From the IMG/VR virus record IMGVR_UViG_3300031857_000007: 64,000 nucleotides of DNA. One strand, written 5' to 3'. Origin of the DNA: a virus. Its lineage: Duplodnaviria; Caudoviricetes. Shown here piece after piece: positions 7,714 through 63,812 of this stretch (the first letter of the stretch is position 1; the number at the start of each line of letters is the position of its first letter). Under the pieces are notes generated by a model. It was given only the letters and a program-made list of their open reading frames with translations, was not told the origin of the DNA and made no database searches. A program made the position numbers and the translations under genes.

Positions 7714-7786
7714 AGCCCCCGACAAGACTTGAACTTGCGACAACCGCTTTACAAAAGCGGTGCTCTACCAGCTGAGCTACAAGGGC
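7714..7786 (-). tRNA. tRNA-Thr(UGU)
   Basis: GCCCTTGTAGCTCAGCTGGTAGAGC-ACCGCT-TT-TGT-AA-AGCGG...GTTCAAG...CGGGGGCT cloverleaf, 73 nt. Confidence 0.95.
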
Positions 7787-7788
7787 AA

Positions 7789-8058
7789 TTAATCGACAGG
7801 TAACATTTCAGGATTTTCTAGATCTAGTTCAAACATTAGAGGATGACATAGTTCATCAATTAAATAAAAAGATGATTTATATAAATCATCTGGTTCAAAC
7901 CTTCTTTCTTTATCTGCCAATTCTATGACTTCCAGATCGTATTGATAACTATCAGGAACATCATCAAAAGTAAATGGTATTTGATTTATGAAATACATTA
8001 GAACTATTTGTGCTCCTTTATTATACCAAACGTATCTGGCATCTATTCTGTATTTCAT
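7789..8058 (-). CDS. Hypothetical protein between tRNA genes
   Basis: ORF track, 89 aa, fills the gap between tRNA-Leu and tRNA-Thr. Confidence 0.65.
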   Translation of the reverse strand: MKYRIDARYVWYNKGAQIVLMYFINQIPFTFDDVPDSYQYDLEVIELADKERRFEPDDLYKSSFYLIDELCHPLMFELDLENPEMLPVD

Positions 8059-8107
8059 AGGAGAACCTCCTACTTTTTTATATTTAGAGATTGTTTAAAA
8101 CCTCTAA

Positions 8108-8191
8108 TAGGAACGGGGAGACTTGAACTCCCACGAGCAAATGCCCAACTGATTTTAAGTCAGGTGCGTCTACCGATTCCGCCACGCTCCC
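8108..8191 (-). tRNA. tRNA-Leu(UAA)
   Basis: GGGAGCGTGGCGGAATCGGTAGACGC-ACCTGA-CT-TAA-AA-TCAG, long variable arm, GTTCAAG T-loop, 84 nt. Confidence 0.95.
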
Positions 8192-8199
8192 ATGTATTT

Positions 8200-8274
8200 T
8201 GGTAGGACTGCTGAGACTTGAACTCAGTTCACACCGTTATAAGCAGTGGGCCTTAACCCATAGGCGACAGTCCC
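8200..8274 (-). tRNA. tRNA-Ile(UAU) with encoded CCA
   Basis: GGGACTG...CACTG-CT-TAT-AA-CGGTG...GTTCAAG...CAGTCCT-A-CCA. Confidence 0.9.
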
Positions 8275-29701: not shown

Positions 29702-29729
29702 TAGGGTTCTCCTTAATTGAAGTTAAAGA

Positions 29730-29829
29730 GCGTTCCTTCAGTCGGCGTTTGCGTCGGTTTCCCGATGAACGTTCCGTTCCGCGTCGGCTTACTTCCGTCC
29801 TATAGTACTTTAGTCATAGGATGAACGTT
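29730..29829 (-). ncRNA. Tandem glutamine riboswitch (glnA/Downstream-peptide family)
   Basis: Two units AACGTTCA-[hairpin]-CG(G/C)AA...GCCGAC...GAACG with P1 CGTTC/GAACG; unit 1 has CGGAAGTAAG, unit 2 has a TCGG-GAAA-CCGA tetraloop and ends GAAGGAACGC. Confidence 0.8.
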
Positions 29830-36083: not shown

Positions 36084-37163
36084 TCAACCAATTGCAGGTG
36101 CGGTGAGAGCAACAGGAGTGTTCTCAACAGCAGCAAGATCAAGAGGGAAGTTGTGAGCGTTGCGCTCGTGCATTACTTCCATGCCCAGACCAGCGCGGTT
36201 CAGAACGTCAGCCCAAGTGTTGAGCACACGACCCTGACTATCAACGATAGACTGGTTGAAGTTGAAACCGTTGAGGTTGAATGCCATGGTGCTAACACCA
36301 AGAGCAGTGAACCAGATACCAACTACAGGCCATGCAGCAAGGAAGAAGTGAAGTGAACGAGAGTTGTTGAATGAGGCATATTGGAAGATTAGACGACCAA
36401 AGTAACCGTGTGCAGCAACAATGTTGTAGGTCTCTTCTTCTTGACCGAACTTGTAACCATAGTTCTGTGACTCGTTCTCAGTGGTTTCACGAACCAGTGA
36501 GGAAGTAACCAGAGAACCGTGCATAGCACTGAACAGTGAACCACCAAACACACCAGCAACACCAAGCATGTGGAAGGGGTGCATCAGGATGTTGTGCTCT
36601 GCTTGGAACACAAGCATGTAGTTGAAGGTTCCGCTAATACCCAGAGGCATCGCATCAGAGAAAGAACCTTGACCGAAAGGATAGACCAAGAACACTGCAG
36701 AAGCAGCAGCAACAGGTGCGCTGTAAGCAACGCAGATCCAAGGACGCATACCCAGACGATAGGAGAGTTCCCACTCACGACCCATATAGGCATAGATACC
36801 AATCAGGAAGTGGAATACAACAAGTTGGAAAGGACCACCGTTGTAGAGCCACTCATCTAGGGAAGCAGCTTCCCAAATGGGGTAAAAGTGCAGTCCAATT
36901 GCGTTGGACGAAGGAATAACAGCACCCGAGATGATGTTGTTTCCGTACATGAGTGAACCAGCAACGGGTTCACGGATACCATCGATGTCTACAGGAGGTG
37001 CAGCAATGAAGGCAACAATGAAACAGATAGTAGCAGCAAGCAGGCAAGGAATCATCAGAGTTCCAAACCAACCAACATAAAGACGATTATCGGTTGAAGT
37101 AACCCAGTTGCAGAATTGTTCCCAAGTATTTGATTGTCGTTGACGTGAAATTGTAGCAGTCAT
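36084..37163 (-). CDS. psbA: Photosystem II D1 protein
   Basis: Full-length D1, [13 protein letters not shown] plus C-terminal extension, no intron. Confidence 0.98.
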
Positions 37164-37178: not shown

Positions 37179-37282
37179 GTAGTAAGACCATCAGGGAAAT
37201 GGTGGAGTTACTATTCCCCAGTCACCCTCAGACTGGGTATGAGAGACGTAATTTATACACCCCATAGGTCTCGGTTAATGGG
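37179..37282 (-). ncRNA. PhotoRC-II-like structured psbA 5' leader
   Basis: GAGAC/GTCTC pairing; hairpin CCCAGTC-TGAGGGT-GACTGGG and hairpin ACCAT-TTCCCTG-ATGGT whose loops are complementary (AGGG/CCCT). Confidence 0.7.
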
Positions 37283-37330
37283 TGTTTAACAATGTTAAGA
37301 TTTATTAGAAATCCGTAACATTTGTTTACC

Positions 37331-61149: not shown

Positions 61150-61997
61150 TAAATCATCTCCTTTATTATATTAGAAATACCCTCTTCAATAGATGTTTTG
61201 GATACCCAGTACTTATTGATATAAGTATTTGGTTTATTTTTCTTATCCATTTGAACAGAATCTTTCTCCTGCGAAGGGACAATTTTCACTTCTTTTCCCA
61301 TCGATTTAAATTGATCGACAATAACATTTGCAATATCAATAATTTTAATTGGTTGGAAACTTGTAATATGAAGTTCATCCTCACTAGTAAATTCGGAGTA
61401 GTTATTCATTATTGATTCCAATGCTTCACAACAGTCTTCTGCGTATAGAAACTCTCGCTCTTCTTGTCCATCAGTAAGCATGTCAATGACACCAGTTTCA
61501 AAACCTTTGCGGATGAAGTCAGTAATGACATGGGATTTTTCGTGATCTTTTTCAATTCCATAAACATTCCAAAACTTAACAATCAATCCATTCAATGACT
61601 TAGTATAGAGTTCACCAACATTTTTAAGCACACCATATGGAGAATAACTCATGTTACTCATCTGTGATGAAGCAAAGATAAATCTCTTATTATGCTTTTG
61701 AAGATATCCAAAAGCATTTGCCATCAAACGAGTATTGTTATCAATAAACTGGAAAGTATGTTGATACTTCTTGAGATAACGAGAACCACCAACATCAAAT
61801 GCAAGGAAGAATACAAAGTCAGAATCTTGTATCGCCATTTCCAATGACGAATTTGGAATTCTAGTCATATCTTGTTCTGGTCCATTCACAACATCGAATT
61901 CATGGACAGTATGACCTTTTCCACGAAGATATTCGGTCAGGTATGCTCCAACTTGACCACTTGAACCTAATACTGCAATATTCATGCTACTATTCAC
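61149..61997 (-). CDS. NAD-dependent epimerase/dehydratase
   Basis: GSSGQVG, PYGVLK (YxxxK), WNVYG. Confidence 0.8.
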   Translation of the reverse strand: MNSSMNIAVLGSSGQVGAYLTEYLRGKGHTVHEFDVVNGPEQDMTRIPNSSLEMAIQDSDFVFFLAFDVGGSRYLKKYQHTFQFIDNNTRLMANAFGYLQKHNKRFIFASSQMSNMSYSPYGVLKNVGELYTKSLNGLIVKFWNVYGIEKDHEKSHVITDFIRKGFETGVIDMLTDGQEEREFLYAEDCCEALESIMNNYSEFTSEDELHITSFQPIKIIDIANVIVDQFKSMGKEVKIVPSQEKDSVQMDKKNKPNTYINKYWVSKTSIEEGISNIIKEMI

Positions 61998-63085
61998 TTA
62001 TTTGTAGATTCGATCTGATCATTAATCCAAGAATACGTCTTACGAATTCCTTCCTCTAAGGTTTGAGAATAATCCCAACCAAGTTTTTCGCGGATAAGAT
62101 CATTATTGGAATTACGACCACGAACACCAAGAGGACCATCAATATGATTCTTCTCTACAGTTTTACCAGAAACTTTAGCAGCAATATCTACAAGTTGATT
62201 GATAGTTACCATTTCCTCAGAACCAATATTCACTGGACCTTGGAAGTCAGAATCCATCATTCGGCGGGTTGCTTCAATACATTCATCAATGTAGAGGAAT
62301 GAACGAGTCTGTTTTCCATCACCCCAAACATCAATTGTACCACCTTCCTTTGGAAGATATGCTACTTTACGACAGATTGCTGCAGGTGCTTTCTCTCTTC
62401 CACCTTCCCAGGTTCCTTCAGGTCCGAAGATATTATGATACCTAGCAACCCGAACAGGGATCCCATAATTACGAGAATAAGCGAGAAACAACCGCTCTGA
62501 GAACAACTTCTCCCAACCATACTCAGAATCTGGGTTAGCTGGGTATGCTGATTCTTCACGGCAGTCAGGATTGTCTGGATCAAGTTGATTATGCTCTGGA
62601 TACATACAGGCAGATCCAGAATAGAAAATTTTGGTTTGATATTCTAAAACAGGTCGAACACATGCAGTTCCATTATCAACACCATCAAATGTTTCATTCA
62701 GTTGGCGCTGTGCCTCAAGAACATTAAGGTTAATTTGTGACGAGTTATGCATGATATCTGCATCATTTTCGCCAGTAAAGACGAATCCTGCACCACCCAT
62801 ATCAGCAGCAAACTGATAGATTTCGTGGAACGGAAGAATGCAGCGATAAGGAACACTGGCGTAAAAATTACCTTGCTCACCTTTGAATTCAAGAACACGG
62901 CGAACAAAACTCATGTCACGCAAGTCACCTTGAATAAATTCATCTGCTTCTGAAATAGAAAACTCAGGATATTTGAGATCTACACCACGAACCCAATATC
63001 CCTCTGCTTTCAAACGCTTTACCATGTGGCTTCCAATGAATCCACCAGCACCAAGTACAAGTGCCGTTTTTTTATAATCGCTCAT
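61994..63085 (-). CDS. GDP-mannose 3',5'-epimerase-like SDR
   Basis: GAGGFIG, FAADMGG.GF, SACMYPE..Q, AYPA.PDSEYGWEK, REKAPAA.CRK, GVRGRNS. Confidence 0.8.
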   Translation of the reverse strand: MSDYKKTALVLGAGGFIGSHMVKRLKAEGYWVRGVDLKYPEFSISEADEFIQGDLRDMSFVRRVLEFKGEQGNFYASVPYRCILPFHEIYQFAADMGGAGFVFTGENDADIMHNSSQINLNVLEAQRQLNETFDGVDNGTACVRPVLEYQTKIFYSGSACMYPEHNQLDPDNPDCREESAYPANPDSEYGWEKLFSERLFLAYSRNYGIPVRVARYHNIFGPEGTWEGGREKAPAAICRKVAYLPKEGGTIDVWGDGKQTRSFLYIDECIEATRRMMDSDFQGPVNIGSEEMVTINQLVDIAAKVSGKTVEKNHIDGPLGVRGRNSNNDLIREKLGWDYSQTLEEGIRKTYSWINDQIESTNK

Positions 63086-63110
63086 AGATTACATTAAACT
63101 CTTTTTATAT

Positions 63111-63139
63111 ATTATACTAAAAAAGGTGGGTTTATGCAA
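63111..63139 (-). promoter_or_regulatory. Sigma70-type promoter for the sugar island, with its -35 inside the terminator
   Basis: TTGCAT-N17-TATAAT. Confidence 0.7.
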
Positions 63140-63146
63140 CCCACCT
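63119..63146 (-). terminator. Intrinsic terminator at the 3' end of the structured RNA
   Basis: AGGTGGGTT-GCATA-AACCCACCT followed by T5. Confidence 0.8.
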
Positions 63147-63555
63147 CTGTGACTCAGGCTCGCCACCAATTCTTTGACTGGAAATTGGAAACCAGGCGGG
63201 AGAGAGTCCCATCCGCACCACTTGCCTTTTGAAGGAATGGCAAGAAACCTAATAGGGTCATATTGACTCCACCACTTAGTTTTAGGAAACTAAGAAAAGT
63301 TGGGTTAACTTTGATATCTCGGTAATACCAAAGAATGCACATAAGAAAAGTACATCCCAAAGTTTAAGTTTAATAGCAAAAGGTACTGTGAGTAATCCTC
63401 CAACAACTTTTATCATTAAACCATATTTAAATTCTCCCCATAGCATAGTTTGATAACCAATTATGAGGAGAATGTTTCCAATCCACCGAAGTAAATCAGA
63501 TTTAGACATAAGGGGTTTTGCTCCCGACCAGTGCTGTTAAAGTCCATCCGTGACT
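63147..63555 (-). ncRNA. manA/wcaG-like multi-domain structured RNA, interrupted by an ORF
   Basis: Repeated pseudoknot-UGGYG-hairpin units (63147-63294) plus a 5' element ACGGATGGAC...CTGGTCGGG..CCCC (63511-63552); family name recalled from memory, not searched. Confidence 0.6.
63282..63509 (-). CDS. Small 2-3-TM membrane protein inside the structured RNA
   Basis: ORF track, 75 aa, hydrophobic; stop codon lies in the loop of the first RNA hairpin. Confidence 0.65.
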   Translation of the reverse strand: MSKSDLLRWIGNILLIIGYQTMLWGEFKYGLMIKVVGGLLTVPFAIKLKLWDVLFLCAFFGITEISKLTQLFLVS

Positions 63556-63557
63556 AT

Positions 63558-63812
63558 TTACTCATCATCGTCCCTCACGTAACAAGGAACAGTATCAGGA
63601 TCCAACCATTTAGTATATTCAAAATCTTCCATAGCCGTCATTAACTGCATTTCATTATCACATAGATACATATCTCGATAACGACCAGTATAAGAGTCTA
63701 CTTTTTGAATACGACAATCGGGTTTACCATTAATTTCTAAAGTACCCACTTGGATGTAACGATATGGAAATCGTTCCATAAGAACAGTTGGTTTCCTAAC
63801 TACTTTCATCAT
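63558..63812 (-). CDS. Conserved hypothetical protein
   Basis: ORF track, 84 aa. Confidence 0.65.
   Translation of the reverse strand: MMKVVRKPTVLMERFPYRYIQVGTLEINGKPDCRIQKVDSYTGRYRDMYLCDNEMQLMTAMEDFEYTKWLDPDTVPCYVRDDDE

Follow-up and report, generated by a model that had tools for sequence, protein, structure and literature searches.

The minus strand of the 64,000-nucleotide (nt) stretch of viral DNA analyzed here (IMG/VR record IMGVR_UViG_3300031857_000007, referred to below as the window) encodes a non-coding RNA that sequence comparison identifies as wcaG RNA, the 3′ part of a longer modular array of a T4-like cyanophage. Each module of this array joins a pseudoknot to a UGGY word and a conserved tail. 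The best reading of these UGGY-tail segments, to which we assign a probability of roughly 0.4, is that specific host RNAs dock at them by their mature 3′ ends. The candidate partners are the transfer RNAs (tRNAs) Leu(CAG/GAG), Pro(CGG), and Ala(GGC), less well Arg(CCG), and, for a variant tail, the transfer-messenger RNA (tmRNA).

An Rfam scan of the whole window detected a full-length wcaG RNA (RF01761, model positions 1-98 of 98) at 63152-63252(−) with a score of 97.8 bits, compared with the Rfam gathering score of 42 for this family. A preliminary description of this DNA had guessed at an RNA of the manA/wcaG type, and the match settles this guess in favor of wcaG. A permissive Rfam scan of positions 63050-63640 added a weak second wcaG-like match over unit 1 of the array (20.7 bits) and, besides wcaG, revealed no T-box (even at E ≤ 5) or other family. 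All features of wcaG are present here, including three hairpins, a 3′ pseudoknot, two UGGYG words (UGGUG at 63216-63220 and UGGCG at 63161-63165 on the minus strand, both invariant in 75 homologues), a T4-like cyanophage genome, and an epimerase gene downstream. The closest DNA relatives of the window are T4-like Synechococcus and Prochlorococcus myoviruses.

In the account of Weinberg et al. 2010 (PMC2864571), the wcaG RNA of marine cyanophages probably regulates in cis, is possibly a riboswitch, and lies upstream of exopolysaccharide and high-light genes. Their alignment includes one annotated pseudoknot, located in the 3′ hairpin between the P2-P3 linker and the P3 loop, and their Additional file 1 notes the duplication of UGGYG and suggests a dimeric protein. 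No ligand or partner of wcaG is reported in the literature searched. Judged by the sequences, the published model corresponds to only the last two modules of the chain; it contains neither the 5′ pseudoknot nor the third and fourth units, and it does not show the RNA as an array.

Modular Anatomy of the Array

Two pattern scans of viral contigs yielded ∼190 loci with 175 non-redundant arrays related to the one in the window. These arrays are modular chains of 2 to 5 modules each, in which each module begins with an H-type pseudoknot, continues with the single-stranded 4-nt linker UGGY immediately next to the second pseudoknot stem, and ends in a conserved tail; in internal modules, the tail serves as the 5′ strand of a small hairpin, P2. 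Three unrelated types of pseudoknot are used interchangeably, each with UGGY as its immediate 3′ neighbor: type I (NGG-UUUC-stem-CCN-A-rich-stem), type II (AGUC-NNGGNNN-GACU-A-rich-CC), and a third type with GCCC/GGGC-like first stems. The genes flanking the arrays differ between loci.

The array in the window includes units 0 to 3, numbered from its 5′ end (Table 1). The two pseudoknots, the third unit, and the fourth UGGUC-hairpin listed in the preliminary description are all found on the minus strand at the positions that it gave; this observation is confirmed, and the elements are not due to chance. The fourth UGGUC-hairpin is part of a complete unit with its own pseudoknot, unit 0, whose UGGUCGGGAGC and hairpin occupy positions 63512-63530. 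In other phages, this unit recurs with the next unit located directly 3′ and no open reading frame (ORF) between them. Here, the two are separated by an ORF of 75 amino acids (aa), which is found between modules in some related arrays and phages but not in others; the hairpin of unit 0 contains GGGAG, a likely ribosome-binding site, ahead of its AUG. The stop codon of this ORF sits in the hairpin loop of unit 1, and it is because of the overlap with the end of the ORF that unit 1 is a hairpin-only unit. Its hairpin-only part (63275-63294) is followed by UGGUGGAGUCA and by the hairpin GGAGUCA-AUA-UGACCC at 63255-63274, in which the tail GGAGUCA is the 5′ strand. In unit 2, the pseudoknot is followed by UGGUGCGGAUGGG (63208-63220, UGGU included), and the tail, GCGGAUGGG, is the 5′ strand of P2.

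The secondary structure is supported by covariation among the relatives. In 75 aligned two-module cores, pairing was observed in 98.6% of the cells, versus 86.7% after shuffling and 37-60% when the partners were slid, and compensatory changes were seen at 14 of the 24 pairs. The individual helices were 97.5-100% paired in these 75 homologues, with compensatory changes at 6 of 7, 5 of 7, and 2 of 3 pairs, and the 5′ pseudoknot stem switches between GAG/CUC (30 sequences), AGG/CCU (28), and UGG/CCA (9). Stem 1 of the type II pseudoknot likewise shows compensatory changes among 135 distinct units, while its second stem, which would combine G-C with G·A in about half of the units, is tentative. 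The stem-2 pairs that face, and would be contacted by, loop 1 vary freely, so the conserved U-A-U triples that had been invoked to stabilize the pseudoknots are unsupported.

UGGY, the tail, and the outer pairs of P2 behave differently from the stems, in that they show zero covariation in the 75 sequences. The tails are invariant across ∼175 arrays, next to stems that covary. Thus, in these alignments, conservation lies outside the pseudoknots, on their 3′ side, and the fact that the tails and outer P2 pairs never covary indicates a sequence-specific rather than a structural constraint.

Complementarity of the Tails to Host RNA 3′ Ends

The tails were compared with a host RNA set consisting of all 41 distinct tRNAs of the marine Synechococcus MIT S9451 and its two-piece tmRNA, with pairing counted for each tail class from A76 of the mature 3′ end. 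The tRNAs were called by ARAGORN, and the discriminator position was corrected where one extra T-A pair had been added. The longest complementarity found, 13 contiguous Watson-Crick pairs without any mismatch, is that of T3, the class of unit 2 (UGGU-GCGGAUGGG; UGGUGCGGAUGGG), to mature tRNA-Leu(CAG); tRNA-Leu(GAG) allows 12 pairs. Class T1a (UGGU-CGGGAUG; UGGUCGGGAUG) forms 11 pairs with tRNA-Pro(CGG), the rarer variant T2′ (UGGU-GGAGCUG; UGGUGGAGCUG) forms 11 pairs with tmRNA, and the common T2 (UGGU-GGAGUCA; UGGUGGAGUCA) forms 12 pairs, including one U·G, with tRNA-Ala(GGC). The tail of unit 0, UGGUCGGGA, which belongs to class T1b, is the complement of the tRNA-Pro(CGG) 3′ end over 9 nt. 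For the terminal tails, T4 and the alternative T5 (UGGC-GUGCAUG, found in 16 arrays), the best partner is tRNA-Arg(CCG), with 10 of 11 positions paired; in the case of the unit 3 tail, UGGCGAGCCUG, 8 of these pairs are contiguous.

The host 3′ ends involved are CAUCCGC-A-CCA in both tRNA-Leu(CAG) and tRNA-Leu(GAG), CAUCCCG-A-CCA in tRNA-Pro(CGG), CAGCUCC-A-CCA in tmRNA, and UGGCUCC-A-CCA in tRNA-Ala(GGC). The Y of UGGY is U opposite A73 (Leu, Pro, Ala, and tmRNA) and C opposite G73 (Arg), a position that is included in the score by which the partners were chosen. Conservation of the partner ends extends across the host family, with CAUCCGC-A in 142 of 151 genomes, CAUCCCG-A and UGGCUCC-A in 32 of 41 each, and CAUGCUC-G in 37 of 41. 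Only 1 of the 41 host tRNA genes encodes CCA, so the full complement exists only against mature RNA, and captured host DNA cannot be its source. None of the 360 distinct tRNAs encoded by phages on the same contigs contains an exact complement of a tail.

Significance was estimated with Markov and composition nulls, as shuffling the 7 to 11 tail bases alone gives too few permutations for small p values. Under the composition-matched null, p was 0.004 per exact 11-mer and 0.0004 for T3, and Fisher's method applied to the five commonest classes gave a combined p of 0.001-0.006, depending on the statistic. A deliberately harsher null, built from the 5′ ends of the tRNAs, left the exact matches with p values of 0.0016-0.0084, and T4 and T5 were not significant. 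When single modules were co-folded with the 41 host tRNAs, T3 and T2 each had the proposed partner at rank 1, T4 had it at rank 2, and T1a at rank 3, a result that is only suggestive, since co-folding ignores pseudoknots, tRNA tertiary structure, and modifications. P2 of unit 2 shares its first four base pairs with the acceptor stem of tRNA-Leu.

A number of observations weigh against docking at these 3′ ends. No perfect partner was found for T4 (CAGGCUC-G) in 41 host-family genomes, for T5 (CAUGCAC-G) in 61, or for T1c (NUCACCG-A) in 46, which leaves both terminal tails, UGGCGAGCCUG and UGGCGUGCAUG, as well as the variant UGGUCGGUGAUG, without a perfect partner in 41-61 genomes of the host family. 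Terminal tails T4/T5 are present in every array, yet their fit at 10 of 11 positions is not significant when taken alone (p = 0.07-0.12). T1b, the commonest Pro-type tail, is complementary over 9 nt only, and the common T2 has a U·G where a C would pair perfectly. The bases that follow UGGY are mostly the 5′ strand of the internal hairpin P2 and hence are paired internally, while the target beyond NCCA is buried in the stable 7-bp acceptor stem, which would have to be opened for pairing. With the acceptor stem closed and the tail paired in P2, invasion would be energetically about neutral, apart from the 4-bp toehold, and we know of no natural bacterial precedent for such acceptor-stem invasion. 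Two of the proposed partners, tRNA-Leu(GAG) and tRNA-Ala(GGC), also read CUU and GCU, codons that are heavily used by the phage. Finally, tRNA 5′ ends are generally resembled by the G-rich strands of helices, and the significance is moderate (∼1e-3), not overwhelming.

In the balance, the proposal that each unit is tuned to a different tRNA end holds, in an independent test at the sequence level, for four tail classes, which have exact or near-exact complements in Synechococcus, and does not extend to the terminal tails and the T1c-type variant. The bases after UGGY are for the most part paired within a hairpin, whose tail strand and outer P2 pairs do not covary. The tRNA-3′-end interpretation is therefore partly supported by the sequence comparisons and may be regarded as an unproven proposal for the partner of the extended form of a known RNA family.

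Frozen tails would fit protein contacts equally well as pairing. The repeated UGGYG and GGA(U/G) words could bind a multimeric host or phage protein, which would be titrated or recruited by the array, with the likeness to tRNA complements being incidental. Invariant single-stranded words that are located between helices and repeated 2 to 5 times are typical of protein sponges, and a dimeric protein is what Weinberg et al. 2010 (PMC2864571, Additional file 1) suggested for the duplicated UGGYG. Such a protein platform appears quite unlikely, as it leaves unexplained why the sequence after UGGY differs by unit, with each class matching another tRNA or tmRNA end over 11-13 nt, and why Y follows the discriminator base; moreover, no candidate protein was linked to the arrays in the loci examined.

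Genomic Context and Proposed Mode of Action

The array of the window ends in its own intrinsic terminator, which is followed by a TATAAT box and the wcaG-type epimerase gene (Table 1), the type of gene that gave the motif its name. Terminator-like hairpins are found 3′ of 125 of the 171 arrays with enough flanking sequence, and 76 of these 125 have a TAnAAT within 30 nt of the U run. The TATAAT box of the window was not called by the sigma-70 scan because it has no good −35 element. TTGCAT is located 17 nt upstream of it, which suggests that the epimerase promoter may be built into the terminator. The terminator loop and flank, GUUGCAUAAAC, are conserved across many arrays (e.g., L047, L052, and L074), whereas the stem covaries. 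A same-strand phage tRNA gene lies within 350 nt upstream of 33 of the 171 arrays, and a tRNA gene is found downstream of the array in 7 cases. Thus, the array looks like the end of a transcript or a part of a tRNA operon, not like an epimerase leader with an overlapping expression platform. Relatives of the small ORF and the array are also seen on riverine and freshwater metatranscriptome contigs, which, being contigs only, are not a guide to transcript level, ends, or strand.

Table 1. Features of the window; units are those of the wcaG array
Feature	Position	Strand	Description
Unit 0	63512-63555	−	Type II pseudoknot (stem AGUC/GACU, loop ACGGAUG, A-rich linker), UGGUC, hairpin GGG-AGCAAAA-CCC
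75-aa ORF	63282-63509	−	Predicted membrane protein, phrog_2318, function unknown, no Pfam family; between unit 0 and unit 1
Unit 1	63255-63294	−	Hairpin CUUAG-UUUCCUAAAA-CUAAG, no upstream pseudoknot strand, UGGU, tail GGAGUCA
Unit 2	63195-63250	−	Type I pseudoknot AGG-UUU-CUUGCC-AUU-CCU-UCAAAA-GGCAAG (63221-63250), UGGU, tail GCGGAUGGG; P2 hairpin 63195-63216
Unit 3 (terminal)	63155-63195	−	Type I pseudoknot CUGG-UUU-CCAAUU-U-CCAG-UCAAAG-AAUUGG (63166-63195), then single-stranded UGGCGAGCCUG (63155-63165)
Intrinsic terminator	63119-63148	−	11-bp stem, loop GCAUA, U run; closes the array
TATAAT box	63111-63116	−	Immediately 3′ of the U run of the terminator; precedes the epimerase gene
Epimerase gene	61994-63085	−	ATG at 63085; 363-aa NAD-dependent sugar epimerase/dehydratase, wcaG-type; PF01370, E = 1.6e-35
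PhotoRC-II RNA	37203-37297	−	86.2 bits; directly 5′ of psbA
psbA	36084-37163	−	Product 92-94% identical to picocyanobacterial D1
Glutamine riboswitch aptamer	29727-29829	−	RF01739, 45.3 bits; 46-nt insertion in the second stem
Phage tRNA genes	7714-8274	−	Thr(UGU), Leu(UAA), and Ile(UAU); all three read A-ending codons

This context bears on the view of wcaG as a small-molecule riboswitch, in which each pseudoknot would be a metabolite aptamer that controls in cis the downstream epimerase or high-light genes. As is generally known, a compact H-type pseudoknot with an A-rich third loop is a common aptamer architecture (preQ1-I, SAM-II), and tandem aptamers are known as well. In the window, however, the gene is set apart from the RNA by a TATAAT box and by a terminator that does not overlap the motif. 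A conserved pairing that could compete with the terminator was not seen, and 19% of the related arrays follow tRNA genes instead of preceding a regulated ORF. The location of the conserved nucleotides outside the pseudoknots and the interchangeability of the three pseudoknot types speak against a conserved ligand pocket, and the number of units varies from 2 to 5. So although the arrangement upstream of exopolysaccharide and high-light genes reported by Weinberg et al. 2010 (PMC2864571) is also seen here, metabolite sensing, for which the literature searched offers no ligand, seems an unlikely function of the array.

The location of the arrays at the ends of transcription units, before terminators and beside tRNA genes, could also be that of a structural 3′-end element that protects the transcript from exonucleases or takes part in the processing of tRNA operons. 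The tails would then be relics of tRNA minihelices, and their matches would be historical or due to chance, which is in line with the moderate complementarity statistics and with the four acceptor-stem base pairs of tRNA-Leu found in P2 of unit 2. A relic would be expected to drift, yet the tails have stayed invariant across ∼175 arrays beside covarying stems. Furthermore, the complement includes the CCA, which is not encoded in 40 of the 41 host tRNA genes, so that capture of host DNA is ruled out, and no phage tRNA matches any tail. This makes a purely structural role rather improbable.

Returning to docking, the structure, conservation pattern, complementarity, host specificity, and context described above lead us to infer binding, discrimination by charging state, and strand exchange in the following form. 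The docked part would be the N73-CCA and the 3′ acceptor strand of the host RNA. The free NCCA of an uncharged tRNA would pair with UGGY, and the resulting 4-bp toehold would stack on pseudoknot stem 2 at one side and on P2 at the other. If A76 carried an amino acid, the aminoacyl group would collide with the end of the helix, in the manner of the T-box discriminator. Since P2 repeats acceptor-stem sequence, strand exchange could then extend the pairing into the acceptor stem. The array would be produced either at the 3′ terminus of an RNA whose synthesis ends at the array's own terminator or inside phage tRNA operons; as such a transcript end or operon part, it would be a trans-acting, multivalent sensor or sponge, not a leader riboswitch.

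The targets of such a sponge or sensor would be host tRNAs that read host-preferred codons. Codon use in the host and the phage is 38% versus 8% for CUG, 21% versus 4% for CCG, 44% versus 5% for GCC, and 15% versus 3% for CGG. The codons read by the matched tRNAs are 5-9 times commoner in the host than in the phage, which suggests that a sponge or sensor would be aimed at host translation. It is conceivable, if doubtful, that the phage RNA captures uncharged host tRNAs by their 3′ ends, through the UGGY:NCCA toehold on the pseudoknot and subsequent strand exchange. Capture would withdraw the tRNAs for the CUG, CUC, CCG, GCC, and CGG codons and, in some phages, the tmRNA. Host translation and ribosome rescue would stall. 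The phage genes would stay readable, as they avoid those codons and draw on tRNAs encoded by the phage itself.

If true, this mechanism would be new both as a class of host shut-off and as a way in which an RNA recognizes tRNA. Confirmation of docking would make wcaG the first known case of a phage RNA that reads the acceptor ends of host tRNAs and would tie together the codon bias of cyanophages, their tRNA genes, and host shut-off in some of the most abundant virus-host pairs of the ocean. Should docking be refuted, the anatomy of the array would still correct the family model with respect to module number, the three pseudoknot types, the terminator, and the linkage to tRNA operons. For wcaG, an orphan riboswitch candidate since 2010 (16 years), attention moves from the pseudoknots to the invariant UGGY and tail, and the partner question becomes directly testable, as the named candidate partners can be purchased or transcribed.

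Two contigs among the relatives (L299 and L307) carry an additional terminal element, in that the terminal tail UGGCGUGCA is followed directly by a second one, UGGCGAACCU, which results in tandem UGGC words before the terminator; this second tail has no good tRNA partner (8 of 11 positions). Elsewhere in the window, the analysis revealed a PhotoRC-II RNA, psbA, a glutamine riboswitch aptamer, and a group of phage tRNA genes (Table 1). The G+C content of the window is 35%, versus 58.5% for the host locus that was read.

Comparison with Known Systems

The T4 species 1 and 2 RNAs (rnaC and rnaD) were considered as a coliphage counterpart of the array and rejected: they are tRNA-like and end in CCA but have no pseudoknot-UGGY module. 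These RNAs (L364, 70908-71171 of NC_000866) adjoin the T4 tRNA cluster; the tRNA likeness is in their 3′ parts, and the CCA end is seen in rnaD.

The T-box riboswitches offer a closer parallel. Here, too, a 4-nt UGGN element is located between helices, and, by analogy, the geometry would set A76 against the end of a helix, so that charged tRNA could be excluded. In contrast to T-boxes, the array has no Stem I, specifier loop, or platform for the tRNA elbow, and its modules, at ∼45 nt, are too short to span a tRNA. UGGY is a linker in the array, the terminator at 63119-63148 does not overlap the motif, and no competition between terminator and antiterminator was seen; pairing of S2b/UGG with the 3′ strand of the terminator is possible but is not conserved among the arrays inspected. 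Further differences are that the complementarity runs 4-9 nt into the acceptor stem, that one RNA contains several putative sites, each for another tRNA, and that this RNA is phage encoded. To our knowledge, cyanobacteria do not use T-boxes.

The primer-binding sites of retroviruses and long terminal repeat (LTR) retrotransposons are ∼18 nt in length, are complementary to the 3′ end of a host tRNA, and start with UGG. Like the UGGY-tail segments, they are encoded by a parasite and form the complement of the discriminator and the 3′ acceptor strand, including the non-templated CCA. The segments described here are shorter (8-13 nt), occur several times per RNA, are each preceded by a pseudoknot, are partly sequestered in hairpins, and are not associated with a reverse transcriptase; there was no retroelement context in the flanks read.

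Individual pseudoknots of the array resemble those of the preQ1-I and SAM-II aptamers in that they are compact, at 30 nt, and that loop 1 is short and rich in U while loop 3 is rich in A. Unlike those aptamers, they have no conserved core: one stem sequence, or even one pseudoknot type, can be exchanged for another, and the conservation lies 3′ of them. As for the wcaG family itself (RF01761), the published model includes two modules and one pseudoknot, whereas the chains analyzed here consist of 2 to 5 modules with three types of pseudoknots. The array of the window also differs from the published wcaG in being closed by its own terminator and in having one module that overlaps the end of a small ORF, and its relatives are often found in tRNA operons.

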